Assembly (NCBI GenBank): GCA_028714495.1
Contig: JAQTMH010000005.1
Location: 32,840 to 96,839 of the forward strand
Direction: 5' to 3'
DNA length: 64,000 bases
Source of the DNA: Patescibacteria group bacterium
GTDB lineage: Bacteria > Patescibacteriota > Patescibacteriia > JAHIZJ01
The position numbers were made by a program, and so were the translations under genes. Within the stretch, counting starts at the first letter, position 1; each line of letters opens with the position of its first letter. The notes beneath the pieces were generated by a model. It worked only from the letters and a program-made list of their open reading frames with translations. It had not been told where the DNA came from and made no database searches. This document shows, in pieces, positions 9,305 through 63,067 of the stretch.

Positions 9305-9319
9305 GTTTAACATCCAACA

Positions 9320-9366
9320 TTTTGAATTTTTAATTTTATCCCCGATTTAATCGGGGATTGAATTGC
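9320..9366. repeat. composite repeat: AT-rich motif (TTTTGAATTTTTAATTTTA) + GC hairpin CCCCGATTTAATCGGGG + ATTGAATT, directly upstream of the serS ATG
   Basis: A second copy lies at 63021-63067 (hairpin CCCCGACTTGATCGGGG + ATTGAATT), also ending about 8 nt before an ATG. Confidence 0.5.
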
Positions 9367-9373
9367 CCCCTCC

Positions 9374-10669
9374 ATGCTCGACATAAAATACATCAGAGAA
9401 AATCCTGATAAAGTGGCTGCGGCTCTAAAAAAGCGCGGTCGCGATGTTGATTTATCCGAAGTTATAAAATTGGACAGGGATCTTCGCAAACTTGTTACTG
9501 ACGTTGATAAGATGAGGGCTGATATGAATCGCTTGGCTCACGCGATAAGAGATGCTCAAGGTTCAGAAAGACTCAACAAAATAGGTGAAGCAACATCGTT
9601 AAAAGACAGCCTGAAAGCCTGTGAAAAGGCACTAGAGCTCGTTAGAGGCAAGTTTCAGGCCAGGATGTATAAATTACCGAATATCCCTTTTGACGATGTT
9701 CCTGTAGGGTTTAATGAGGCTGGTAATAAAATATTGCGTAAGATTAGCCAAAAAACTAAATTCTCCTTTAAACCAAAGGATTGTTTAGCCATTTCAAACG
9801 CCTTAGATATTATTGATACAGAGCGAGCGGCCAAGGTATCAGGCACTCGCTTTGGGTATTTAAAAGGACAACTGGTAAAAATACAGTTCAATTTAATCAG
9901 CTATGTTTTTAAACGCCTGACTGATGAAAAATGGTTAGCCGGCGTAATCAAAAAGGCGAAACTGGACGTGCCAGCCAAGGCTTTTATTCCAATGGTCCCG
10001 CCGGTGATGATTAGGGGAGAGGTATTTAAAGCCATGGGCAAGCTTGATCCCGGGCAAGAAGAGGAGAGGTACTATCTGCCGAAAGACAAGCTCTATCTTA
10101 TCGGCAGCGCTGAACATACGCTCGGACCGTATTTCATGGATGAAACTTTTAAGTCAACTGATTTGCCTGTCCGCTTAATCGGCTACTCAACTTGTTTTCG
10201 CCGTGAAGCCGGAAGCTATGGAAAAGATACGAAGGGAATTTTACGCGTACACCAATTTGATAAACTTGAAATGTTTTCTTTCTCAAATCCCAAGCTTTCC
10301 AGAATAGAACACAAATTTTTTCTGGCCATCCAAGAAGCCATGATGCAAGAATTAAAACTCCCGTATCAAGTTGTCCATATTTGCACCGGCGACATGGTAT
10401 CAACCGACGCTGAACAATTTGATATTGAAACCTGGCTGCCTGGGCAGAATAACGGGGCAGGGGAGTATCGTGAAACACATTCATGTTCAAACTCAACCGA
10501 TTTCCAGTCACGCCGGCTAAATATCAAATACACCGACGGCAAAAAAACCGAGTTCGTCCATACTCTTAACGGTACCGCCTTTGCCATCGGCCGAACGTTA
10601 ATCGCCCTGATCGAGAATTACCAGACAAAAGAGGGAAATATCAAATTTCCGAAGGTTTTATTAAACTAA
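9374..10669 (+). CDS. serS: seryl-tRNA synthetase
   Basis: MLDIKYIRENPDKV N-terminal coiled-coil arm and a class II core (TCFRREAGSYGKDTKGILRVHQFDKLE). Confidence 0.9.
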   Translation: MLDIKYIRENPDKVAAALKKRGRDVDLSEVIKLDRDLRKLVTDVDKMRADMNRLAHAIRDAQGSERLNKIGEATSLKDSLKACEKALELVRGKFQARMYKLPNIPFDDVPVGFNEAGNKILRKISQKTKFSFKPKDCLAISNALDIIDTERAAKVSGTRFGYLKGQLVKIQFNLISYVFKRLTDEKWLAGVIKKAKLDVPAKAFIPMVPPVMIRGEVFKAMGKLDPGQEEERYYLPKDKLYLIGSAEHTLGPYFMDETFKSTDLPVRLIGYSTCFRREAGSYGKDTKGILRVHQFDKLEMFSFSNPKLSRIEHKFFLAIQEAMMQELKLPYQVVHICTGDMVSTDAEQFDIETWLPGQNNGAGEYRETHSCSNSTDFQSRRLNIKYTDGKKTEFVHTLNGTAFAIGRTLIALIENYQTKEGNIKFPKVLLN

Positions 10670-10776
10670 CACAAGGTGTTGGTTCGTATAATATCCAGTT
10701 AAACGAAATTGAGAAATTATCGCTTTCGTCGTACCATTAAAGAAAGCTTAATAAATCAAGATCTGATCATGCTTAT

Positions 10777-11829
10777 ATGCCTATCAACGTAGCAATTATC
10801 GGAACAGGAAACTGCGCTAAAAGCCTTGTTGAGGGTGTGGCTTTCTATTCTAAAAACAAAGAGGACAAAACTGGTTTAATGAATCCGCATATTGGAAAGT
10901 ATCACCCTTCTGATATCTACTTTGTCGCTGGCTTTGATATTGATGAAAGAAAAGTAGGTAAAAAATTACACGAAGCACTCAATGCGGAACCAAACAAAAC
11001 TGTTAAAATTGCAGACGTTCCTGAATATGACGTCATAGTGCAACGTGGCCCAACCTGTGACAGCGTTATTCCTGAACTTCGAGAATATTTTATCCATGAA
11101 AGCGACGAACCCGTTGCTGACGTTGCACAGGTCCTCAAAGATTCTGGTGCTGAAATCGTCATCAACTATCTTCCGACCGGCAGCGACAAAGCTACTTATG
11201 CGTACGCGGAAGCGGCTCTAATTGCTGGCTGTAGTTTCATTAACTGTATGCCTACACCAATAGCTAAACATCCGGAGTGGCAAAAAAAATTTGACGACGC
11301 CGGGCTTGTTTTGATGGGAGATGATATTAAGAGCCAATGCGGTGCTACAATTGTTAATCGGGTTTTGCTCAATCTTTTAAAAATGCGCGGTATTCGTATT
11401 ACAAAGTCCGAACAAATAAATTATGGTGGTAACTGCGACCACTTTAATCTGCATTACAGGCCTGAAGCCAAAGAAGCATCAAAAGAATCTGCTCTAAACA
11501 GCGTACTTAATCCCGACGACGCAAAACCCTCTGCTCGCATGGTTTATACTAAAAATAACTACGACCACAAACAAGCCAAAATTAAAATGGAAGGCGAAAT
11601 GTTTGGGCACATTCCTGTTTCCATTGATCTCACACTTGAAGACGAAGATAGTCCGAACAGTGGCGGCGTCGTCAATGACGCAATTAGAGCCGCTAAATTA
11701 TTAGTAGAGAATAGAAGGCCATACCTAGCCAAAGAATTGTGCGCCTTTTTATTCAAAGCCCCACCAGCGCAGTTTCCTGACACAGAAGCATTGCAAAAGT
11801 TTAGAGAGATTATCAAATCTTTAGAGTAA
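10777..11829 (+). CDS. myo-inositol-1-phosphate synthase family protein (archaeal-type MIPS-like, NAD-binding)
   Basis: N-terminal Rossmann motif (IIGTGNCA). EDSPNSGGVVNDAIRAAKL resembles the archaeal MIPS C-terminal motif. 350 aa. Confidence 0.5.
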   Translation: MPINVAIIGTGNCAKSLVEGVAFYSKNKEDKTGLMNPHIGKYHPSDIYFVAGFDIDERKVGKKLHEALNAEPNKTVKIADVPEYDVIVQRGPTCDSVIPELREYFIHESDEPVADVAQVLKDSGAEIVINYLPTGSDKATYAYAEAALIAGCSFINCMPTPIAKHPEWQKKFDDAGLVLMGDDIKSQCGATIVNRVLLNLLKMRGIRITKSEQINYGGNCDHFNLHYRPEAKEASKESALNSVLNPDDAKPSARMVYTKNNYDHKQAKIKMEGEMFGHIPVSIDLTLEDEDSPNSGGVVNDAIRAAKLLVENRRPYLAKELCAFLFKAPPAQFPDTEALQKFREIIKSLE

Positions 11830-11845
11830 CGACCGCGCCAATTTC

Positions 11846-11917
11846 TCAACATCGTTTAACAGCGTCTATCCGCCATCCGCCCTGGGCGGACAGGCGCATG
11901 AGACGCAAACGTTGTGC
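11846..11917 (+). repeat. structured repeat copy A (attC-like: ACAAC/GTTGT and GCGTCT/AGACGC box pairs flanking the CCGCCCtgGGCGG hairpin)
   Basis: The same about-65-nt element recurs at 12452, 13061 and 13455. This copy ends about 25 nt before the ATG of the next ORF. Confidence 0.6.
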
Positions 11918-11943
11918 GAAATTCCATTTTTACTAATAAAACT

Positions 11944-12441
11944 ATGCTCATAGGATTAGCTGGGTTGCCGGCGTCCGGTAAGACCTCGATTGCAAAACAA
12001 CTTGAGAAATATGGGTTTCAAAACCTTTCAAGGGATCATTTTATCTCCTCGTTATTTAATCCCGTCCACTATAGCTCGCGCAAGCAAAAAGATATCGCAT
12101 ACAAAGCCATGATGCTTGTCGCCGAATATCACTTGAGAAGCAACCGTAAGGTTGTCCTCGATTGTCCATCGTTTAGTCAAAGGTGGGCCATCAAACTTGC
12201 GCAGGAAACCGCACGAAAGACGAGATCGAAATTTAAACTCATCTTTCTTACCTGCCCCGATCATACAGCGGTACACAGAATCCGCTCATCAAAAAATCAC
12301 ACCGCAACTGACCGGACACCGGCACTCTACTTCAACGTAAAAAAACGTTTCCAACCTCTCACTGTGCGACATGCTGTTATACGGACAGATCGGGCGATCA
12401 AGGACACGATGATCGATATTATCCAGTATTTGAAAAAGTAA
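11944..12441 (+). CDS. small P-loop NTPase / nucleotide-kinase-like protein
   Basis: Walker A GLPASGKTS at the N-terminus. 166 aa. Start assumed at the ATG (MLIGLAG), because the ORF-track start is a GTG that lies inside repeat A. Confidence 0.5.
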   Translation: MLIGLAGLPASGKTSIAKQLEKYGFQNLSRDHFISSLFNPVHYSSRKQKDIAYKAMMLVAEYHLRSNRKVVLDCPSFSQRWAIKLAQETARKTRSKFKLIFLTCPDHTAVHRIRSSKNHTATDRTPALYFNVKKRFQPLTVRHAVIRTDRAIKDTMIDIIQYLKK

Positions 12442-12451
12442 AAATGAAACT

Positions 12452-12519
12452 TCGCACAACAGCATCTATACGCCATCCCGTCGGATGACGGGGCAGCGTA
12501 TGAGACGCAAACGTTGTAC
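12452..12519 (+). repeat. structured repeat copy B (ACAAC..GCATCT..[CCCGTCggatGACGGG]..AGACGC..GTTGT)
   Basis: Outer and inner inverted boxes and a central GC hairpin, as in copy A. Followed about 20 nt later by the ATG of the HD hydrolase. Confidence 0.6.
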
Positions 12520-12537
12520 GAAATTGTCACACACACT

Positions 12538-13050
12538 ATGATTACAGCAGATGAATTTAAAAAATTAATAGATTTTGCCTTTGAGGCCTATCAGATAAAC
12601 AATACATCTGGCCAAGAATATAGGCAAAATGGAAAAGTGCCTTATATCATACATCCGCTTTGGTGTGCTTCAATGCTAATTACCGACACTAGAATTCCCT
12701 ATGAGGAACGAGAAAAAGGCTTTAAAGCACTTGTATTGCATGATGTACTTGAAGACACGAGCATGCAATTTCCAGACTGGGTTGAGCCAGATGTTAAAGA
12801 GATTGTAAAGGAATTAACTTTTGAAACTTCTGACCATGCTTTGGCTTCTATTCAGTCCAAGTCAATTAATATAAAACTCCTCATGCTAGTTGACGGCTTG
12901 TCTAGTATGTATGAGGAGCATGTCTGGCCTCAAAGGCGAAATAAATGGAAGGCCATGATGGAGATTGTAGTTAAAGAAGTTGAGGAACACTATGGAAACA
13001 TTCGAGTTGTTCAGTTGGCGAAATCCATAATTGAAAATACTAATTGGTAG
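12538..13050 (+). CDS. stand-alone RelA/SpoT-type HD domain, small alarmone ((p)ppGpp) hydrolase-like
   Basis: GKVPYIIHPLWCASMLI and ALVLHDVLEDT match the SpoT/Mesh1 HD signature. About 170 aa. Confidence 0.6.
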   Translation: MITADEFKKLIDFAFEAYQINNTSGQEYRQNGKVPYIIHPLWCASMLITDTRIPYEEREKGFKALVLHDVLEDTSMQFPDWVEPDVKEIVKELTFETSDHALASIQSKSINIKLLMLVDGLSSMYEEHVWPQRRNKWKAMMEIVVKEVEEHYGNIRVVQLAKSIIENTNW

Positions 13051-13060
13051 TGTGTTTGTG

Positions 13061-13156
13061 ACAACATCGTACAACAGCGTCTATCCGCCATTCCCTGCCT
13101 AGGCAGGCAGGCGCTAGCGCTCCACGCCGCATACGCCGAAACGTTAGATGAGACGA
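13061..13156 (+). repeat. structured repeat copy C (rearranged 3' boxes; central CCCTGCCtagGCAGG hairpin)
   Basis: Shares CAACATCGT..ACAACAGCGTCTATCCGCCAT with copy A. It lies upstream of the Cys-rich peptide ORF. Confidence 0.5.
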
Positions 13157-13207
13157 TGACCAAATAAAAAATATCATTAAAAAAACAAAAGAAGGAGGTG
13201 ATAAACA

Positions 13208-13357
13208 ATGTGTGAATGGTGTAATACTACAGTGTACTGTGGCTGTCCTAAACCCGAAGACAGCATTACAAAATGTGGGTGCGAAAAAGGTGTAAACTGC
13301 GCTGTCTGTGGCCACAGTCCAAGAAAGGAAGAGAAAGAAAAACCTGAAGAAAAGTAA
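13208..13357 (+). CDS. cysteine-rich 49-aa peptide (8 Cys + 1 His; metallothionein-like or zinc-ribbon-like), not in the ORF track
   Basis: Translation: MCEWCNTTVYCGCPKPEDSITKCGCEKGVNCAVCGHSPRKEEKEKPEEK. Strong SD AAGGAGGTG 7 nt upstream. Below the 60-aa ORF-track cutoff. Confidence 0.5.
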   Translation: MCEWCNTTVYCGCPKPEDSITKCGCEKGVNCAVCGHSPRKEEKEKPEEK

Positions 13358-13454
13358 ACCCGCGAGATTGAAGTTATGGCATAACCTACTGGTGTGGTTG
13401 TAATTCTTTTGCTTAACCAAATCAGTCCATCATTACCAGATAGGCCGCGCAATT

Positions 13455-13518
13455 CTACCGCCTCCATTCCGTCGCAACTCCCGCCAGAGGCGGGCAGGTC
13501 GGCTAGCCCGAAACGTGT
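13455..13518 (+). repeat. structured repeat copy D (degenerate; CCCGCCagaGGCGGG hairpin, ..GAAACGT tail)
   Basis: CTACCGCCTCCATTCC..hairpin..CAGGTCGGC..GAAACGT parallels copies A and C. Confidence 0.4.
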
Positions 13519-13575
13519 TATCGGAAATATCAACTACTACATTATTAACTTTATAAATTTAATTTTTTATTAACT

Positions 13576-13743
13576 ATGATAAACAAATACGGTAATTTAA
13601 TAGCTGCAATAAGTTTTTTTATCGCGGCTATTTGTATGTTTATTTCAGATGCGCACAGTAAAGCTATCTTTACAGCGATGTTTGGTGTGCTTGGGATAGT
13701 AAATATGGTTATCTTTGCAACTAACAAAAAGAAATAATACAAA
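13576..13743 (+). CDS. small two-TM membrane peptide (55 aa)
   Basis: MINKYGNLIAAISFFIAAICMFISDAHSKAIFTAMFGVLGIVNMVIFATNKKK. Two hydrophobic helices and a lysine tail. No clear RBS. Preferred over the overlapping minus-strand ORFs. Confidence 0.25.
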
Positions 13744-13883
13744 AAAACCGTAGTTTGGTGGTCGATCAATGGATGTCGAACATTGTAAAATTAATACTAA
13801 ACCGGCTATCAATGCCGATAAAATGGGCAAAAACTTCAGATACAAATAAACGTTAGCTGAAATAATAAAAATTAATATAAAAT

Positions 13884-14249
13884 ATGGAAAAAAATATTAG
13901 CAAGGGTTTGTTCTGGACGCCAAGAATTCTAGCAATGATATTCATCCTCTTTTTAGCCTTGATGTCGCTGGATGTTTTTGGGCCGGGGCAAGGTTTTTGG
14001 CAAACAACTGAAGCTCTTTTTACGCATAATTTGCCCGCTCTCGTTTTGCTTGCGGTCTTACTAATATCTTGGAAATATGAAATTGTCGGCGGGGTCGGTT
14101 TTATTCTGGCTGGATTAGTTTACATCGCCTTGCTAATGAGAAGCCCGTTTGAATGGTATAAGCTGTCCTGGGCCATGCAAATTGCCGGAGTTGCTTTTCT
14201 GACAGGAGCATTATTTCTCGCGGGTTGGTTTAAAAAAAGACACAAATAA
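13884..14249 (+). CDS. hypothetical four-TM membrane protein
   Basis: 121 aa, four hydrophobic segments, no recognisable motif. Confidence 0.45.
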   Translation: MEKNISKGLFWTPRILAMIFILFLALMSLDVFGPGQGFWQTTEALFTHNLPALVLLAVLLISWKYEIVGGVGFILAGLVYIALLMRSPFEWYKLSWAMQIAGVAFLTGALFLAGWFKKRHK

Positions 14250-14317
14250 TTATTACATGCGATAATACGGGCTAGCCGGTTCCGTGAAAGAGATGAAATT
14301 TATTTTACAAAATTGAA

Positions 14318-14344
14318 GAGCCCCTTGATGTGATCGCGGGGCTC
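14318..14344 (-). terminator. hairpin GAGCCCC(N13)GGGGCTC downstream of the 14354..14683 gene
   Basis: 7-bp GC stem seen in sequence, followed by a weak U-rich tract on the minus strand. Confidence 0.3.
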
Positions 14345-14353
14345 GGCTGAGGG

Positions 14354-14683
14354 TTAGGCAGACGGTACGGGTTCGATGATCTCAAACACTCCATGGCGAT
14401 GAGTCGTCACATACAGAGCCTTGAACCTGCGGGATCGGTGGTTTTTCTCGAAGTAGCTGCCCTCGATTTCCCACGAATCCCCGTTGCGATTGGCGCGACG
14501 ACAGCCAATGACCATAGCCTCGATCCGGCCGTCGAAGACGGGTTCCGGAATGTTCACGGCTTCTGCGCTAGCATCGACCGTGAACCAAACAGTATGTTGG
14601 TGCTTCCGGTCGTCTGCGAATAGCGCGGTCATGAGGTCGAACTTCGACGGTCCGCCACTGATCGAAATCACTGGGTTAGCCAT
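14354..14683 (-). CDS. hypothetical protein, GC-rich (about 57% GC) relative to surroundings
   Basis: 109-aa ORF with a strong SD (AAAGGAGGGG) before the ATG. Its composition stands out from the 40% GC background. Confidence 0.45.
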   Translation of the reverse strand: MANPVISISGGPSKFDLMTALFADDRKHQHTVWFTVDASAEAVNIPEPVFDGRIEAMVIGCRRANRNGDSWEIEGSYFEKNHRSRRFKALYVTTHRHGVFEIIEPVPSA

Positions 14684-14955
14684 ACAGTAACCCCCTCCTT
14701 TTAAAGGAGCTGCTCCTGAACAGGGCAGGAGCTCCCTCTGATCCAGTCATGCGACCAGACGACCTACCCATACGGATAGGAATTATCGAACCAAAGGACT
14801 ATAGTTCAGTTTGAAGAAAATGTCAAGGTGTGTACAATAATCAGAAATTTCGCCTCTTTCGCTTCACCCAAATTGCTTCTTCATTCCGGCGGTACTTCGA
14901 TCCGATCGATATTGTTCCGCCTATAGAATACTAGTTATTAAGATAATTTACCGAT

Positions 14956-14984
14956 TTAACAAAACCTTCATTTTCCGGTATAAT
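14956..14984 (+). promoter_or_regulatory. putative promoter TTAACA-N17-TATAAT upstream of alr
   Basis: Seen in sequence about 30 nt upstream of the alr start. Inference. Confidence 0.3.
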
Positions 14985-15013
14985 TTACGGGAAAGTTTTA
15001 TTATTAGTTTAAT

Positions 15014-16150
15014 ATGGACAACAAACTACTTTCCTGGATTGAAATAGATAAATCCGCGCTTCTAAATAATTTAACCGCTTTTAAAAAATTAGTCGGCTCA
15101 AAAGTCGAAGTAATGCCGATTATTAAAAGCAATGCCTACGGTCATGGCTTAATTGAGGTTGCGAAGATTTTCGCTCCAAAGAGCAATTGGCTGGGGGTTG
15201 TTAACCTTGATGAAGCGTTATTACTTAGAAAAAACAGAATTAATAACAAGATTTTTGTTTTGAGCTATTTTGATGAGAAAAAATTATCATCGGCAGCCGG
15301 CAAAAATATAGTTTTCCCGGTATATACTCTTGAAATGGCTAAAATGATTTCCCTGGCTGGATTAAAGGCGAGAAAACGAATACCAGTTCACATAAAAATC
15401 GACGTAGGCACTTCCAGGATTGGAGTTTTGTCAAACGAAGCAGTTAACTTTGCCAAAAAAATTAAGAAATTGCCAGGCTTGGAAATCCAAGGCGCTTTTT
15501 CACATTTGGCTGATTCTGAAAATTTCGACCAAAGCTATACCAACAAACAAATTAAAACTTTTCAAGAAGCCATTCGTACGCTTGAAGAAAATGGTTTCAA
15601 TTTGCGCTACAAACATCTGGCTTGTTCAGCCTCAACGATCATTAACCCGCGATCGCGATTTGACCTGGTACGCGTTGGAATTGGCCTTTATGGCCTCTGG
15701 CCCTCAAAAGGCGCTAAAGACCTGTTTAAACGGCATTTAAACGGCTTTAAATTGATTCCAGCGCTATCTTGGCACACCAAAGTAATACAAATCAAATCCA
15801 TACCCGAGAGAACCAATATCGGTTATGGCTGTACGTATAAAACCAAAAGGCTTACTAAGCTGGCTATTCTGCCTATTGGCTATTGGGATGGCTATGATAG
15901 AAAATTATCAAATAAAGGCGAGGTCTTAATAAGTGGCAAGCGAGCTAAAATTCTTGGCAGAGTTTGTATGAATATGATGATGATAGACGCAACTGACATA
16001 CCAGGTGTCAGAGCAGGGGATAGGGCAATGTTAATCGGCGGGCAAGGCAGAGAATATATCAGCGCTGAAGAGCTTGCTGAAAAAGCCGAAACGATTAATT
16101 ATGAAATTGTAACGCGGATCAACCCGCTTATTCCGAGAATCGTGGTATAA
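15014..16150 (+). CDS. alr: alanine racemase (PLP-dependent)
   Basis: PIIKSNAYGHG carries the PLP-lysine motif. 378 aa with a TIM-barrel plus beta-domain layout. Confidence 0.85.
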   Translation: MDNKLLSWIEIDKSALLNNLTAFKKLVGSKVEVMPIIKSNAYGHGLIEVAKIFAPKSNWLGVVNLDEALLLRKNRINNKIFVLSYFDEKKLSSAAGKNIVFPVYTLEMAKMISLAGLKARKRIPVHIKIDVGTSRIGVLSNEAVNFAKKIKKLPGLEIQGAFSHLADSENFDQSYTNKQIKTFQEAIRTLEENGFNLRYKHLACSASTIINPRSRFDLVRVGIGLYGLWPSKGAKDLFKRHLNGFKLIPALSWHTKVIQIKSIPERTNIGYGCTYKTKRLTKLAILPIGYWDGYDRKLSNKGEVLISGKRAKILGRVCMNMMMIDATDIPGVRAGDRAMLIGGQGREYISAEELAEKAETINYEIVTRINPLIPRIVV

Positions 16151-22786: not shown

Positions 22787-23803
22787 ATGCGAGAAGCTAT
22801 TTTATATAAAAAACTTGCTAACGGCGCGGTCAAATGCGAGGTTTGCTGTCATCAGTGCGTAATCGCCGATAAAAAGCGCGGGATTTGTTCGGTCAGAGAA
22901 AATAGGAACGGCGTTCTTTACGCTTTAAACTACGGCCTAGCGATAACCTCAGCTGTCGACCCGATTGAGAAAAAGCCCTTCTTTCACTTTTTCCCTGGTA
23001 CCACGGCTTTTTCTTTTGCCACGCTAGGCTGCAACTTCCGCTGTGATAATTGCCAGAATTGGCAAATCTCCCAGGGCTCAAAGTTGGGAAATAACTCAAT
23101 CGCCGGTGAATTACTATCGCCTGAAATCATCGTCAAACAAGCCCAGGCCAGCAATTGTTCCAGCGTAGCCTACACCTACACCGAACCGACGATTTTCATC
23201 GAGTACGCCCTTGAGACGATGAAACTGGCCAGACGCGCCGGGCTGAAAAACGTCTGGGTGTCAAACGGTTTTTTTTCAGAGGCCTCTTTTATAAAGATAT
23301 TACCCTACCTTGACGCGATCAATATAGATTTGAAATTCTTTGATGACCGGAAATACCAGCAGTACTGCGGCGGCCGACTCCAGCCAATTCTAGACAATAT
23401 TGTCAGATCGAAAAAAGCTGGCGTCTGGACCGAAATAACCACCCTGGCTATTCCGTCTTTGAGCGACGATGATGCGATGTTCCAGAATATAGCCAAGTTT
23501 ATCAAAGAAAAAGTCGGGGCTGATGTCCCTTGGCACATTTCAGTTTTCGCTCCGGAAATTTCATATAAACTTCAAGAATTTAACGTTACTCCGGTTAAAA
23601 CACTTGAACGAGCGGCCAGCCTTGCTCAAAAAGCCGGATTGAAGCATGTTTATGCCGGCAATACGCCAGGTAATAATTTAGAAAATACCTATTGCGCGAA
23701 TTGCCACACCCTCTTGATCAAACGATTGGGCTATCAGATAAAACGTTTTGATAATCACGGCGTATGCTATAATTGTAAAACCCCTATAGATATTATTGAA
23801 TAA
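22787..23803 (+). CDS. amrS: AmmeMemoRadiSam system radical SAM enzyme
   Basis: CNFRCDNCQNW (CxxxCxxC) and N-terminal CEVCCHQCVI cysteines. PFL-activase-like, 338 aa. Confidence 0.8.
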   Translation: MREAILYKKLANGAVKCEVCCHQCVIADKKRGICSVRENRNGVLYALNYGLAITSAVDPIEKKPFFHFFPGTTAFSFATLGCNFRCDNCQNWQISQGSKLGNNSIAGELLSPEIIVKQAQASNCSSVAYTYTEPTIFIEYALETMKLARRAGLKNVWVSNGFFSEASFIKILPYLDAINIDLKFFDDRKYQQYCGGRLQPILDNIVRSKKAGVWTEITTLAIPSLSDDDAMFQNIAKFIKEKVGADVPWHISVFAPEISYKLQEFNVTPVKTLERAASLAQKAGLKHVYAGNTPGNNLENTYCANCHTLLIKRLGYQIKRFDNHGVCYNCKTPIDIIE

Positions 23804-55985: not shown

Positions 55986-57239
55986 TTATTTCCAGTGTTT
56001 TAGAGCTGCCTTTAGGACCGGGCTATCCTCAGCCTGTTTGTTGATCGGCGTGCCTTTGACCGCTGCTAGGACCGCTTCTTTTACTGCCTGGGCTCCGGCT
56101 AGAGTTCCGTTCGGATGGCCGTGTATTCCACCGCCAAAGTTTACTATCACATCCGGTCCGGTAATTTTATAAAGCCGTGCGATTAATCCCGGGTGAAGTC
56201 CGCCTGAAGCGATCGGCATTACTTTTTTAATCCGGCCCCAGGGCTTTTTTAAAAACGAATTGATTGCCACGGTCTCTTCGACTGAACCTGCCATTTTCCC
56301 GACCACGGTGCCAGTATGAAGCTGGTCAATGCCCGCCAGCCGCGCCAGCTTCGCGATAACCAGCATTGAAATTCCGCGCTCCGGATCGCGGGTAATCGCT
56401 GAATGCATTGCCCGGTGGCCATGGAGAATCAAACCGAGCTTGGCTTGGCGCAAAGCCTGCAAGCCAGAAAAGCCGATCGTCATGATATCAACCATGGCGC
56501 AATTGCCACCCTGGCTCTTGATATACTTTGCCCGGCGGATCATTTCGTCAGCCGGCGCCGTGATATTAAACGCGCAGATTTTCATTTCGCCGGTTTCTCG
56601 CTCAGCCCGGCGAGCCAGCCTTAGGGTTTCTCTGACTCTGTTTGTAAATGGATTGAACTTCAAGTCAGTTAAATTTTCATCGTCTTTGACCAAGTCGGCT
56701 CCGCCTTTGAAGCAGAGGTAGGCAAATCGAGCGTGCGCTCTCCAGCTCAAACCGATTTTCGGCTTCATAATCGCTCCGATTAAAGGCCGGCCCGGTATTT
56801 TTATTTTTCGGCGTACGCCCGCTATACCAAAGGCTGGTCCGGCAAAGGAATTGATATAAACAAGGGGCAGATCCAAATCTACCAGCCGCAATTTTGAAAC
56901 CACCTTCATGCTGAAAATATTTCCAGACACGCTCGACAAAAGCTGAGGTATGTTTCCTGGTTCAAAGAGCTCAATGGGATAAGCGATTCTAGCTAAATTT
57001 TTTTTAGTATTCAGGCCAATAACCTTAGCCGAAAGTCTTTTAAAAACCGACTCGCTCAACGTTCCAACTTCGGTCCAGGTGCCAATTGATGACTCGCCAG
57101 CCACAATCTGGGCGATTTCCTTTAAAGGCAACTTCGATTCAATTCGAAAAGTTGCCACCAGGTGGCTCTTTAAGTCAAGCCGCCGATTCAGCGCTAAATA
57201 ATTTGATTTGGGGCGGGCATTTTTCATTGTAAAATCCAC
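55986..57239 (-). CDS. rbcL: ribulose-1,5-bisphosphate carboxylase large subunit, form II/III
   Basis: GAIMKPKIGLS and GGADLVKDDENL active-site motifs. 417 aa. Confidence 0.9.
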   Translation of the reverse strand: MDFTMKNARPKSNYLALNRRLDLKSHLVATFRIESKLPLKEIAQIVAGESSIGTWTEVGTLSESVFKRLSAKVIGLNTKKNLARIAYPIELFEPGNIPQLLSSVSGNIFSMKVVSKLRLVDLDLPLVYINSFAGPAFGIAGVRRKIKIPGRPLIGAIMKPKIGLSWRAHARFAYLCFKGGADLVKDDENLTDLKFNPFTNRVRETLRLARRAERETGEMKICAFNITAPADEMIRRAKYIKSQGGNCAMVDIMTIGFSGLQALRQAKLGLILHGHRAMHSAITRDPERGISMLVIAKLARLAGIDQLHTGTVVGKMAGSVEETVAINSFLKKPWGRIKKVMPIASGGLHPGLIARLYKITGPDVIVNFGGGIHGHPNGTLAGAQAVKEAVLAAVKGTPINKQAEDSPVLKAALKHWK

Positions 57240-58156
57240 GGGTAGTACTTTTTTGCGTATTGTCTCACTTGCCTTGGCTCGATCAAACCAAATTCAGTCA
57301 CTAAATAAGTTATTTGATTGGCCGGTACTTTATCAAAGGCGAAATTCAGAATTTCCAGGCCAGCTGGCGCGCCAGCCCAAACCTCCTTAGCCGGCCGTTT
57401 CTCTATTTTCACCGGTATCTGGCCGACGCATTTCAATAGGCTGGCCACGATGTAAACTGGCACATGATTGACGCTGGCCGAGAGGGTTAAGCCAAAGCTG
57501 CCTATTTTATTTAACACTGAACCGTCGGGCATAATCGCGTCTGCCCCGATGACAACCGAATTCATCATTAAATCGCGTCCTGACGCGGGACTGATCAAAA
57601 ATGGTCCAGCGCTATCGACAATCATAGTGACTGGAATTCCCTTGGTCCGAAGCGCCTTGGCGGTAATTCGTCCCTGAAAAAGTGGCCGGGTTTCAGAAGT
57701 GTACACGTGGAATTTCTTTTTTCTGTGCGTCTCAATCAGAAGCTGTTCAGTTGTCGAAGAATGGCAATGGGTAAAAATCCTATCCCCGCTTTTAATGATT
57801 GCCCGCCCCAAAAGGCTGATTCGACTCTGAGTTTGCGCCAGCAGTTTAATGAATTCCTGGGCGCTTTTTTTCAGAATAAAAACCGAGGGCTGCTGGTTGA
57901 TCCTCTTCCAGACAAATAATAGTCCGTTTCTAGTCAGAGGTTCGGTCGGACGACTGTGCTGAAGGAGATAAGCCATCGCTACCTTCATTTCGTGTTTCCA
58001 GTTTTGCGATTTTTTTATCTTTAGGTTCGAACCAAACCGTACATAGGCTTCAAGCGTAGCTCGGGCGACAGCGGTGGCGCCTTGAATTTTTATGCTCTGG
58101 ATGTCCCGGATAACGCCGTTAAAAGAGTTGTAATGCATAATTTTAAAATTATTCAA
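57224..58156 (-). CDS. ribose-1,5-bisphosphate isomerase (e2b2 / eIF-2B-like family)
   Basis: 310 aa eIF-2B alpha/beta/delta-like protein immediately upstream of rbcL. Forms the canonical AMP-salvage trio. Confidence 0.75.
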   Translation of the reverse strand: MNNFKIMHYNSFNGVIRDIQSIKIQGATAVARATLEAYVRFGSNLKIKKSQNWKHEMKVAMAYLLQHSRPTEPLTRNGLLFVWKRINQQPSVFILKKSAQEFIKLLAQTQSRISLLGRAIIKSGDRIFTHCHSSTTEQLLIETHRKKKFHVYTSETRPLFQGRITAKALRTKGIPVTMIVDSAGPFLISPASGRDLMMNSVVIGADAIMPDGSVLNKIGSFGLTLSASVNHVPVYIVASLLKCVGQIPVKIEKRPAKEVWAGAPAGLEILNFAFDKVPANQITYLVTEFGLIEPRQVRQYAKKYYPWILQ

Positions 58157-62294: not shown

Positions 62295-62951
62295 ATGGTT
62301 GAACGCCTTACTAAAAAACAAAAAGAAATTCTTGACTTTGTAATCGAGTTTATAAAGGTAAGCGGCTATTCACCGAGTTATCGGGAAATTGCCGACCATC
62401 TCGGTCTGTCCTCCCCTGCCACCATCCATGAACATATCCGAGGACTTGAAGACAAGGGCTATCTCAAGGCCCAAGAGGGCCGGGCTCGCTCGCTTGAACC
62501 AACCCGGGCAACGCGTTTCAAAAAAGCGCTTGAATTACCCCTCGCTGGTTTGATTACAGCCGGAGAGCCGATTGAGGCTGTTCAAGAAAATGAGACAATT
62601 ACCGTTCCGGCGGAAATTGTTCGCGATGAAAATTCTTATGTCCTGAAGGTTAAGGGTGAATCAATGATCGAGGATGGAATACTGGACGGCGATTATGTAA
62701 TTGTTGAACGCAATTTCTATCCGCGAAATGGCGATGTAGTCGTAGCTCTACTGGACAATACCTATGCCACGCTTAAACGTTATTACCGTGAAAGGTCGCG
62801 CATCCGCCTTCAGCCAGCCAATTCAAAGATGAAGCCGATTTATTCCAAGAATCCGGCGATTCAGGGAATTGTCCGTGCCATTTTCCGCAAGTTTGAAACT
62901 GATTGGCAGAACTATAAAACCTACACTAGAGGTTTTCAGACGGTAAAGTAG
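62295..62951 (+). CDS. lexA: LexA repressor (S24 peptidase)
   Basis: N-terminal winged HTH (SYREIADHLGLSSPATIHEHI) and the C-terminal Ser/Lys dyad region (VKGESMIEDGI..ATLKRY). Confidence 0.85.
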   Translation: MVERLTKKQKEILDFVIEFIKVSGYSPSYREIADHLGLSSPATIHEHIRGLEDKGYLKAQEGRARSLEPTRATRFKKALELPLAGLITAGEPIEAVQENETITVPAEIVRDENSYVLKVKGESMIEDGILDGDYVIVERNFYPRNGDVVVALLDNTYATLKRYYRERSRIRLQPANSKMKPIYSKNPAIQGIVRAIFRKFETDWQNYKTYTRGFQTVK

Positions 62952-62960
62952 AACAAAGGT

Positions 62961-63067
62961 AATGTAAAATTAAAAATTAAGAATTAAAAATGATGGTAAT
63001 CCGCCGCAGGCGGATACAATAATTTTAAATTTTACATTTTGTCCCCGACTTGATCGGGGATTGAATT
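62961..63067. repeat. mini inverted-repeat element (AATGTAAAATTAAAAATT .. TCCGCCgcaGGCGGA hairpin .. AATTTTAAATTTTACATT) followed by the CCCCGACTTGATCGGGG + ATTGAATT hairpin
   Basis: 18-bp IR with one mismatch. Second copy of the composite hairpin seen at 9340-9364. Ends 8 nt before the ATG of 63075. Confidence 0.45.

Follow-up and report, generated by a model that had tools for sequence, protein, structure and literature searches.

A conserved Cys8His mini-protein gene in an integron-like cassette array of a deep-branching Patescibacteria lineage

The described systems closest to the locus analysed here fall on two sides, that of the protein and that of the DNA around its gene. On the protein side stand the bacterial metallothioneins (family 14, of the SmtA/BmtA type, and Cu-metallothioneins of the MymT type), the small multi-knuckle zinc modules (zinc ribbons; the Cys-rich domain of DnaJ, which is a nested two-Zn module; and HVO_2753, an archaeal CPxCG zinc-finger micro-protein), and the SCIFF peptides, with six Cys in forty-five residues. 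In the beta domains of metallothioneins a three-metal M3Cys9 cluster uses 9 ligands. On the DNA side stand integrons and their cassettes: clusters of attC sites that lack an integron integrase are termed CALINs (Cury et al. 2016; IntegronFinder 2.0, PMC9024848), and integron integrases are themselves defined by an IntI-specific additional domain (Messier & Roy 2001, cited in PMC9668308), which is also stressed as defining in the archaeal integron paper. A search for integrons in Patescibacteria found nothing in the searchable literature, and NCBI already names the Patescibacteria recombinases found with the site family described here "recombinase/integron integrase".

We analysed a 64-kb stretch of Patescibacteria DNA (the window, in what follows) in which a 49-aa Cys-rich ORF lies among repeats between serS and alr (Table 1). 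The host belongs to a deep-branching, uncultured lineage of Patescibacteria: the best match of the window serS among GTDB species representatives is 51% identical, and the window carries a RuBisCO/IF-2B pair, common in CPR genomes. We consider it reasonably probable, though well short of certain, that the ORF encodes a small cytoplasmic metal-binding mini-protein of a rare family, whose gene moves horizontally and stands here in an integron-like array.

The translation of the ORF is MCEWCNTTVYCGCPKPEDSITKCGCEKGVNCAVCGHSPRKEEKEKPEEK. Its motifs, C2xxC5, C11xC13, C23xC25 and C31xxC34-G-H36, give residues 1-36 a total of 8 Cys and 1 His, exactly as a preliminary description of this DNA had given them. 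With a Cys fraction of 16.3% the peptide ranks first among the 352 ORFs of at least 40 aa in the six frames of the window (8.1% in the runner-up), and it packs 4 CxxC/CxC motifs into 49 residues. An independent gene caller predicts the same 49-aa gene in the public assembly. The Shine-Dalgarno sequence, 7 nt upstream of the start, had been counted among the best of the window and bears this out: the 9-mer AAGGAGGTG at 13192-13200 leaves a 7-nt spacer to the ATG, and the full 11-nt match (AAGGAGGTGAT) is the sole anti-SD-complement match of 10 nt or more on either strand of the 64 kb. At 32 of the 52 host gene starts inspected an SD match of at least 4 nt is absent, so the SD of the peptide gene is both strong and atypical for the host genome, and it looks foreign to it. 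Translation from this SD would be efficient. Since a promoter and terminator scan of 10600-15100 gave no enrichment over shuffles and no convincing promoter for the peptide gene, transcription would come by read-through from upstream. Met1 is generally removed when the second residue is small, and its removal here would leave an N-terminal Cys.

Table 1. Features of the peptide gene and the surrounding array (positions in the window; arrows mark junctions).
Feature	Position	Strand	Details
attI-like junction, GTTCGTATAATATCCA↓GTT	10682..10700	+	13 nt after serS stop; array start
Cassette c1, myo-inositol-1-phosphate-synthase-like gene	10699-11911	+	ended by attC-like site 1
attC-like site 1	11846..11922	+	80.5 bits; bottom-strand fold z = -5.5; 32-nt end pairing
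Cassette c2, AAA_33 kinase-like gene	11912-12513	+	ended by attC-like site 2
attC-like site 2	12446..12524	+	74.1 bits; fold z = -6.0
Cassette c3, 170/178-aa ORF	12514..13143	+	28-nt end pairing; ended by site 13061-13154
attC-like site 3, intact, directly upstream of the peptide ORF	13061..13154	+	59.1 bits, E 4e-14, strand-specific
Site 3, R''-like GTACAAC	13069-13075		
Site 3, hairpin body	13076-13142		
Site 3, R'-like GTTAGAT	13143-13149		
Peptide unit, G↓TT to G↓TT, 374 nt, single ORF	13144..13517	+	right boundary approximate
Shine-Dalgarno AAGGAGGTGAT	13192..13202	+	11-nt anti-SD-complement match, end 5 nt before ATG
Cys8His mini-protein ORF, 49 aa	13208..13357	+	span includes stop; translation, homologs, public gene call
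Cys-rich core, residues 1-38; Lys/Glu-rich tail, residues 39-49	within 13208..13357	+	
Degenerate site downstream of peptide: hairpin CCCGCCAGAGGCGGG, GGCTAGCC palindrome, CGAAAC-GT-GTTATCGGAAAT	13440..13519	+	
Hairpin-less junction, R''-like AAAACTTCAGATACA and AAAC↓GTTAGCTGAAAT	13830..13863	+	12.5 bits, 44 model positions deleted

We conducted an exhaustive phmmer (HMMER) scan of 1.84 billion representative proteins and found four true relatives of the peptide, 53-110 aa long: P0002 (71 aa, E 1.7e-9), P0003 (53 aa, E 1.3e-6), P0004 (110 aa, E 7.9e-6) and P0006 (54 aa, E 4.8e-4). Two more matches were discarded as spurious, one being a repeat protein and the other having a single CxxCG knuckle in common with the peptide. 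A profile version of the search in a 5.8-billion-cluster collection gave only 4 proteins, and a word-index search with the single peptide found only the peptide itself. The family has five members in the representative library (~15 billion predicted proteins overall), a number on which conservation statistics are thin; it is very rare and was previously unannotated. Across the alignment, M1, C2, C5, C11, C13, P14, I20, C23, C25, G28, C31, C34, G35, H36 and P38 are invariant, V/I29 is also conserved, and positions 29-30 hold an aromatic or aliphatic residue, giving a 38-residue core of the form M-C-x2-C-x5/6-C-x-C-P-x3-D-x-I-x2-C-x-C-x2-G-x2-C-x2-C-G-H-x-P. Beyond about residue 40 the tails are unrelated among members, yet all are charged or acidic, and they are probably disordered. 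The conservation of the Cys positions in homologs, on which the claim of a genuine small Cys-rich protein had been made to depend, is thus complete: all 8 Cys, and the His with them, are kept in the 4 homologs.

The DNA of the relatives tells the same for the gene. The three compared at the DNA level lie on contigs of 64%, 35% and 69% GC, and the GC3 of the genes tracks the host (0.72, 0.24 and 0.91, against 0.36 for the window gene); among the family genes pS is saturated, at 0.74-1.09, while pN is 0.26-0.41, and the family is therefore under purifying selection. A chance ORF or non-coding spacer, with Cys codons supplied by a TG-rich hairpin, or an antisense ORF as the real gene, could be suspected from the shortness of the ORF, its place between structured repeats and the two long antisense ORFs (126 and 118 aa) that overlap it. 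The AT-rich homolog, on contig L085, has stops in every antisense frame, so the 126- and 118-aa ORFs are not the conserved feature, and the sense frame alone is open in all four homologous genes. In addition, three unrelated genomes without the repeats keep the invariant Cys and His through saturated synonymous change, the ORF lies outside the hairpin at 13061-13154, and the SD is perfect and rightly spaced; the homolog on contig L084 has AAGGAGGTG at the same place before its gene. The chance-ORF reading is effectively refuted and retains a negligible probability. On the invariant Cys/His, the contrast of pS and pN and the single open frame, we conclude that the ORF at 13208-13357 is a real, conserved gene.

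Family models give the peptide no name. Pfam-A hmmscan at E<=1 assigned 0 families to the window peptide and to P0002, P0003, P0004 and P0006, a scan of four family members against NCBIfam at E<=10 likewise gave 0 families (TIGR03973, the SCIFF model, included), and PHROGs and PADLOC held no phage or defence family for any member. The kinships that the preliminary description had proposed for checking, with family 14 bacterial metallothioneins and with small zinc ribbons, were not borne out at this level: the Pfam model of the former stays unmatched at E<=1, the peptide and its relatives match no zinc-ribbon family in Pfam at the same threshold, and HVO_2753_ZBP does not match the peptide. Going by these absent matches, the peptide appears to lie outside metallothionein family 14, SCIFF and any modelled zinc ribbon. 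Neither the peptide nor the family profile had a significant sequence match in the PDB (profile matches at E 0.2-3.8 only). An AF2 model from the 4-sequence alignment reached a pLDDT of 63.7, and Foldseek found 0 matches for it in the PDB; a model this weak speaks neither for nor against the proposed treble-clef or zinc-ribbon fold. The best of the non-significant PDB profile matches (E 0.2-0.45) all fall on the segment DTIARCNCQTGVYYC..HYP of enterovirus 2A protease, which we take to carry the CxC half of the structural CxC...CxH zinc site of that enzyme. The family has C23xC25 and C34xH36, a likeness that we keep as a lead only.

The arrangement of the ligands points to a metal. The four Cys pairs are mirror-symmetric, CxxC-(5/6)-CxC-(9)-CxC-(5)-CxxC, followed by G-H, and the last pair forms a CxxCG knuckle. 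Cys and His make up 24% of the core, and the ligand-type residues never vary while most residues between them do; the few conserved non-ligand positions (P14, I20, G28, V/I29, G35, P38) are as would be expected for a small folded knot. We read the core, from its residues, as a metal-binding mini-domain, most plausibly for Zn(II), and the peptide is best filed, on the same grounds, as a putative new small family of a known kind, the small Cys-rich metal-binding proteins. The peptide would fold around metal ions, most likely Zn(II) or another soft metal like it, bound by its eight Cys and His36, nine invariant ligands in all. They could form two tetrahedral sites, either nested (C2/C5+C31/C34 with C11/C13+C23/C25) or sequential (C2/C5/C11/C13 with C23/C25/C34/H36), or else a small thiolate-bridged cluster. 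Nine ligands equal two tetrahedral sites and one spare, an inexact fit. The protein might buffer metal, or serve as a rigid module by which the charged tail is displayed to a partner.

A more specific form of this proposal would make the peptide a metallothionein-like buffer or detoxifier, its nine ligands forming a thiolate-bridged M3-type cluster for Zn, Cd or Cu. The high Cys density, the CxC motifs typical of metallothioneins, the number of ligands and a mobile gene that stands alone in all contexts agree with it, but no Pfam bacterial metallothionein or other family matches at E<=1, metal-resistance genes are missing nearby, and the conserved P14, I20, G28, G35 and P38, together with the aromatics, are more like a folded Zn module than like classical metallothioneins; we consider it rather unlikely. 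It is a sub-case of the mini-protein reading preferred here, and a portable metal-tolerance trait would suit a cassette. An iron-sulfur mini-protein with a redox role, of a rubredoxin-like Fe(Cys)4 type or with a small Fe-S cluster, is improbable. CxxCG knuckles and C-x-C-P resemble the ligand motifs of rubredoxins and ferredoxins, but the spacing differs from CxxCxxCxxxCP, no rubredoxin, ferredoxin or other Fe-S family matches at E<=1, and redox partner genes are absent nearby.

The neighbours of the gene differ in four contexts: cassettes in the window, a Zn_ribbon_TFIIB gene on L084, pyrG-cdd on L085, and unknown neighbours in the fourth. In the other three genomes the family gene is not cassette-borne and has no repeats around it. 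Horizontal spread of the gene is the reading that best suits these sequences. The same contexts bear on a RiPP precursor (SCIFF/ranthipeptide-like or otherwise Cys-modified) whose maturase would be encoded elsewhere, a proposal that the small Cys-rich peptide itself and a radical-SAM gene in the window (22787-23803) might encourage. The preliminary description had argued from the lack of an adjacent modifying enzyme against a SCIFF-type RiPP, and the argument extends to all four contexts, none of which has a maturase, protease or exporter next to the gene, which makes a RiPP unlikely. The radical-SAM gene is 9.4 kb away amid housekeeping genes and is missing from the contigs of the homologs, the core begins at residue 2 and so leaves no leader peptide, and neither SCIFF nor any other NCBIfam family matches at E<=10; we hold the RiPP proposal to be highly improbable, and return to the preferred reading of a metal-binding mini-protein.

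We further examined the array itself. Between serS (9374-10669) and alr (15014-16150) stand same-strand ORFs of unrelated function, kept apart by a repeat ending in AAAC↓GTT. Sites 1 and 2 fold as near-perfect hairpins (z in Table 1). By an exact-pattern scan of JGI metagenomes, 11 further loci were found in which the arms are conserved as here and the loops vary. The consensus stem of 15 distinct copies has a bulged base at a constant place and true compensation between paired bases: one stem pair is C-G in six copies and A-U in six. From the 15 copies we built a covariance model, with which, rather than with IntegronFinder, the attC-like sites were called. In the window it detects just three strong sites. 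All three are on the + strand, and the same places score at most 13 bits on the - strand. Rfam finds nothing in the window. In each of the units c1-c3, 24-32 nt at the 5' end pair with the stretch just ahead of the hairpin that closes the same unit, and the pairing stops exactly at ...AAC. This is a cassette signature, the 5' R' pairing with the R'' of the unit's own site. The ORF of c3 has a weak HD-phosphohydrolase similarity (phrog_990, 1e-9), and exact-protein look-ups of neighbouring cassette proteins (121 aa and 170 aa) returned the same strain only. IS200/IS605-type ends, Xer dif modules and REP elements were considered and rejected as the identity of the repeats because each unit has a single oriented hairpin of 55-95 nt and cassette-specific end pairing, the break points fall at GTT/AAC, and the sites are associated with a tyrosine recombinase and an attI-like site.

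The start of the array is marked by a motif, GTTCGYATAA-N3-9-GTT, that has one match in the window against 0.05 expected. L090, L096, L099/100 and L103/104 each have one copy, in every case some 100-120 nt upstream of a divergent tyrosine-recombinase gene; in 95 other loci the motif does not occur. Near serS of 56 GTDB Patescibacteria loci the hairpin model found no sites, so the location at serS is not a conserved CPR feature. A Phage_integrase domain is lacking in the 30 window ORFs scanned, which include all ORFs flanking the array, and the array is not adjacent to an IntI with the extra domain, as a complete integron would be. With three strong one-strand sites within 1.3 kb and no recombinase among those 30 ORFs, the window array is CALIN-like, with an attI-like start.

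Recombinases are found in related elements. In L096 at least 4 cassettes with the same site architecture come after a 272-aa recombinase (P0008), which NCBI names [quoted passage not shown]; L101 and L103 have the same layout with 12-14 small ORFs, and each of the seven covariance-model matches in L101 falls in a gap between genes, on the strand of the array. The L096 recombinase passes the XerA/integron-integrase model and scores 223 bits with TIGR02249, against a cutoff of 265. Where VchIntIA (V. cholerae IntI) has a 66-residue region with the IntI-specific domain it has 24 residues; judged by its sequence it is not a canonical IntI, as the extra domain appears to be missing.

A sibling strain from another run of the same project (L003, serS 89% identical to that of the window) shows what varies and what stays. 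The peptide unit is 442/444 nt identical over 13064-13507, and in L003 three cassettes that differ from those of the window stand between serS and this unit, so that the identical unit is present in a different array context. The cassettes proximal to attI are thus variable and the distal peptide unit is common to both, as expected if new cassettes enter at attI. The identity between window and L003 starts right after the R'' triplet (13076): the 67-nt hairpin body is identical, but it follows unrelated ORFs in the two strains, and each R'' fits its own cassette. Break points between other contigs that share units also fall on triplets, the L097/L090 identity starting at AAAC↓GTT, and the common unit of L089/L095 running from G↓TT (A↓TT in L095) to ...ATATAAC↓, after which the hairpin bodies are unrelated. 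The identical body in window and L003, together with the L089/L095 break points, suggests, at the level of sequence, that exchange is possible at AAC↓ besides G↓TT. Two processes could give exchange at AAC↓: recombination of the other strand, or homologous recombination inside the conserved arm of 30 nt.

The peptide ORF starts 54 nt past the third intact site, whose crossover we infer to lie at G13143↓T13144. That it is encoded as one cassette of a repeat array, as had been proposed, holds for its membership in the array and for the intact upstream site, and fails to hold at the other end, where the downstream site is degenerate and the unit ends are unpaired. Beside the marks of an integron cassette in an array, namely the attI-like motif, three intact sites and a second context in L003, the peptide unit has an upstream site of 59 bits and a downstream one that our covariance model fails to detect (E<=10). 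By eye the stretch 13440-13519 looks like an attC minus its R''/L'' arm, with a GT gained before the GTT, and it folds no better than shuffles (z = +0.2). A search as far as 14350 for an R'' that would pair with the unit's 5' end gave a best score of 20, where shuffles average 16.6 and reach 25. With its degenerate downstream site and unpaired ends the peptide unit may have lost the ability to move as a single cassette. Next comes a possible 53-aa membrane ORF (13576-13737), which precedes the hairpin-less junction, and after this unit a DUF7670 gene; the junctions of these units are still more degenerate, and a junction similar to the hairpin-less one occurs in L097. The peptide unit is thus the first of a distal stretch of the array that has decayed and is probably fixed.

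The wider claim, that this is the first of a new class of mobile metal-binding micro-proteins, with a Cys8His core from residue 2, spread across phyla partly by a non-canonical integron system of Patescibacteria, we regard as unlikely as it stands. On this view the peptide might be a metallothionein with an M3 cluster, or a metal-dependent inhibitor that uses the acidic tail, and the system would have a recombinase without the IntI extra domain, acting on long cassette-specific attC-like stems with exchange possible at either R box (G↓TT or AAC↓). A sharply defined micro-protein family with invariant ligands is a clean target for synthesis, metal-binding and structural work, and the gene illustrates that ORFs below the usual length cutoff in cassette arrays can be real genes. 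The locus is also an instance of a chromosomal cassette array in an ultra-small CPR genome. The array begins at a fixed attI-like site, its content is not the same in the two sibling strains, and its site family is linked to short Xer/IntI-like recombinases without a domain that is regarded as essential to integron recombination. Should the system be active, gene flow among CPR bacteria could be studied through it, as could the way in which structure-specific recombination works without the IntI extra domain.

Compared with the known systems, the peptide is like the bacterial metallothioneins SmtA/BmtA and MymT in being very small and cytoplasmic, in having Cys and His as about a quarter of its core, in its CxC and CxxC motifs with a His among the conserved ligands, and in its stand-alone genes. 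It is unlike them in having no profile similarity, another Cys spacing, a core beginning at residue 2, conservation of Pro, Gly, Ile and aromatic residues, and a tail that is charged and probably disordered; its metal binding is putative. With the small multi-knuckle zinc modules it has in common a length of 40-60 aa, four mirror-symmetric Cys pairs, CxxCG and the possibility of two metal sites formed from knuckles 1+4 and 2+3, whereas two of its pairs are CxC and not CxxC, it has an extra invariant His, and it matches no Pfam family. SCIFF resembles it in size (about 45-50 aa) and in its many Cys, but the peptide has no TIGR03973 match, no leader peptide and no adjacent radical-SAM maturase.

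The array, for its part, differs from integrons in several respects. The L096 recombinase is without the IntI extra domain and below the TIGR02249 cutoff; the cassette ends pair over 24-32 nt, with a conserved 2-nt mismatch, instead of over a 7-nt R box; break points also fall at AAC↓, so that hairpin body and upstream ORF do not always travel together; and the 3' site of the peptide unit itself is decayed. It is like integron cassettes and CALINs in its short one-strand units, mostly with a single ORF, of unrelated functions; like attC in its imperfect hairpins with R''(..AAC)/L''/L'/R'(GTT..), a bulged base, a variable loop and compensatory changes; and like integrons in its G↓TT break points and in the different cassette content of sibling strains at a fixed chromosomal site. 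Of the two, the recombination platform is a more unusual feature than the peptide itself.

We find complete integron-like elements in Patescibacteria contigs carrying related attC-like hairpins (L096, and also L090 and L099-L104), each with an IntI/XerA-like tyrosine recombinase of 272-275 aa. The recombinase is without the IntI-specific extra domain, with 24 residues there compared with 66 in VchIntIA, and its TIGR02249 score of 223 falls below the cutoff of 265. The elements share a conserved attI-like motif (GTTCGYATAA-N3-9-GTT) at ~100-120 nt upstream of the gene for the recombinase, and the arrays run divergently, with up to ~14 small ORFs separated by attC-like hairpins. In classical integrons, the integrase is often under LexA control, and the window holds a LexA repressor gene.

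Coordinates of features in the window and in related contigs.
Feature	Contig	Position	Strand	Remarks
46-nt AT-rich repeat with embedded GC hairpin	window	9319-9364 and 63022-63067		ATTTTRAATTTT...TCCCCGAYTTRATCGGGGATTGAATT
Paired ends, first intact cassette	window	10698-10729/11829-11860
myo-Inositol-1-phosphate-synthase-like gene	window	10699-11911		350 aa; PF01658, 5.7e-20
Paired ends, second intact cassette	window	11911-11934/12437-12460
Paired ends, third intact cassette	window	12513-12536/13048-13075
Hairpin body compared between strains	window; L003	13076-13142; 2549-2615
Possible two-helix membrane peptide	window	13576-13737	+	53 aa; unit after Cys peptide
ORF at distal array end, opposite strand	window	14354-14683	-	109 aa; flanks 14300-14830
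RuBisCO large-subunit/IF-2B-family pair	window	55986-58156	-
LexA repressor gene	window	62295-62951	+
Peptide gene of AT-rich homolog and neighbours	L085	1056-1641
Complete integron-like element, Patescibacteria	L096	6366-9770

The first, attI-proximal cassette of the window is the myo-inositol-1-phosphate-synthase-like gene, an example of a fairly large metabolic gene carried as a cassette. The candidate 53-aa membrane peptide has only weak family matches, and its putative ORF lacks a Shine-Dalgarno sequence and is absent from gene calls on public assemblies. The 109-aa ORF looks like a separate foreign insertion; it is GC-rich (56% as against ~42%) and has its own near-consensus promoter (TTGACA-17-TATAGT, 14826-14798), an AAGGAGG Shine-Dalgarno sequence, no family match in Pfam, PHROGs or PADLOC and, just past its stop, a stem-loop (~14310-14337) seen by eye and not among the terminator-scan results.

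Searching PDB with the family profile of the Cys peptide returned only weak, nonsignificant matches (E 0.2-0.45), all to the stretch DTIARCNCQTGVYYC..HYP of enterovirus 2A protease, whose family counterpart is DSItkCgCekGvyCavCGHyP. The CxC in this protease segment is half of a structural zinc site of the form CxC...CxH; a CxC (23, 25) and a CxH (34, 36) likewise occur in the family. In the AT-rich contig L085, the homologous peptide gene begins 28 nt after a gene for cytidine deaminase, a zinc enzyme, both lying downstream of pyrG; given an apparent stem-loop followed by a T run at the peptide gene end (by eye), the two genes may be co-transcribed.

Elsewhere in the window, the RuBisCO large-subunit/IF-2B-family pair is typical of the CPR nucleotide-salvage pathway, and the two copies of the 46-nt repeat (87% identity), one directly upstream of serS, may serve in termination or in regulation.

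Each intact window cassette has ends that pair with one another over 24-32 nt, far longer than the 7-nt R box, with a conserved 2-nt mismatch (GAAAT opposite ACATC), and an excised circle would therefore have a much longer stem than the in-array site. For units common to two contigs, break points fall both at ...AAC|, on the side of R'', and at G|TT (L089/L095, two contigs with related hairpin sites; window versus the sibling-strain contig L003), so that a hairpin body can be inherited with its downstream ORF or with neither neighbor. Such inheritance of hairpin bodies departs from the canonical integron model, in which only the bottom strand recombines.
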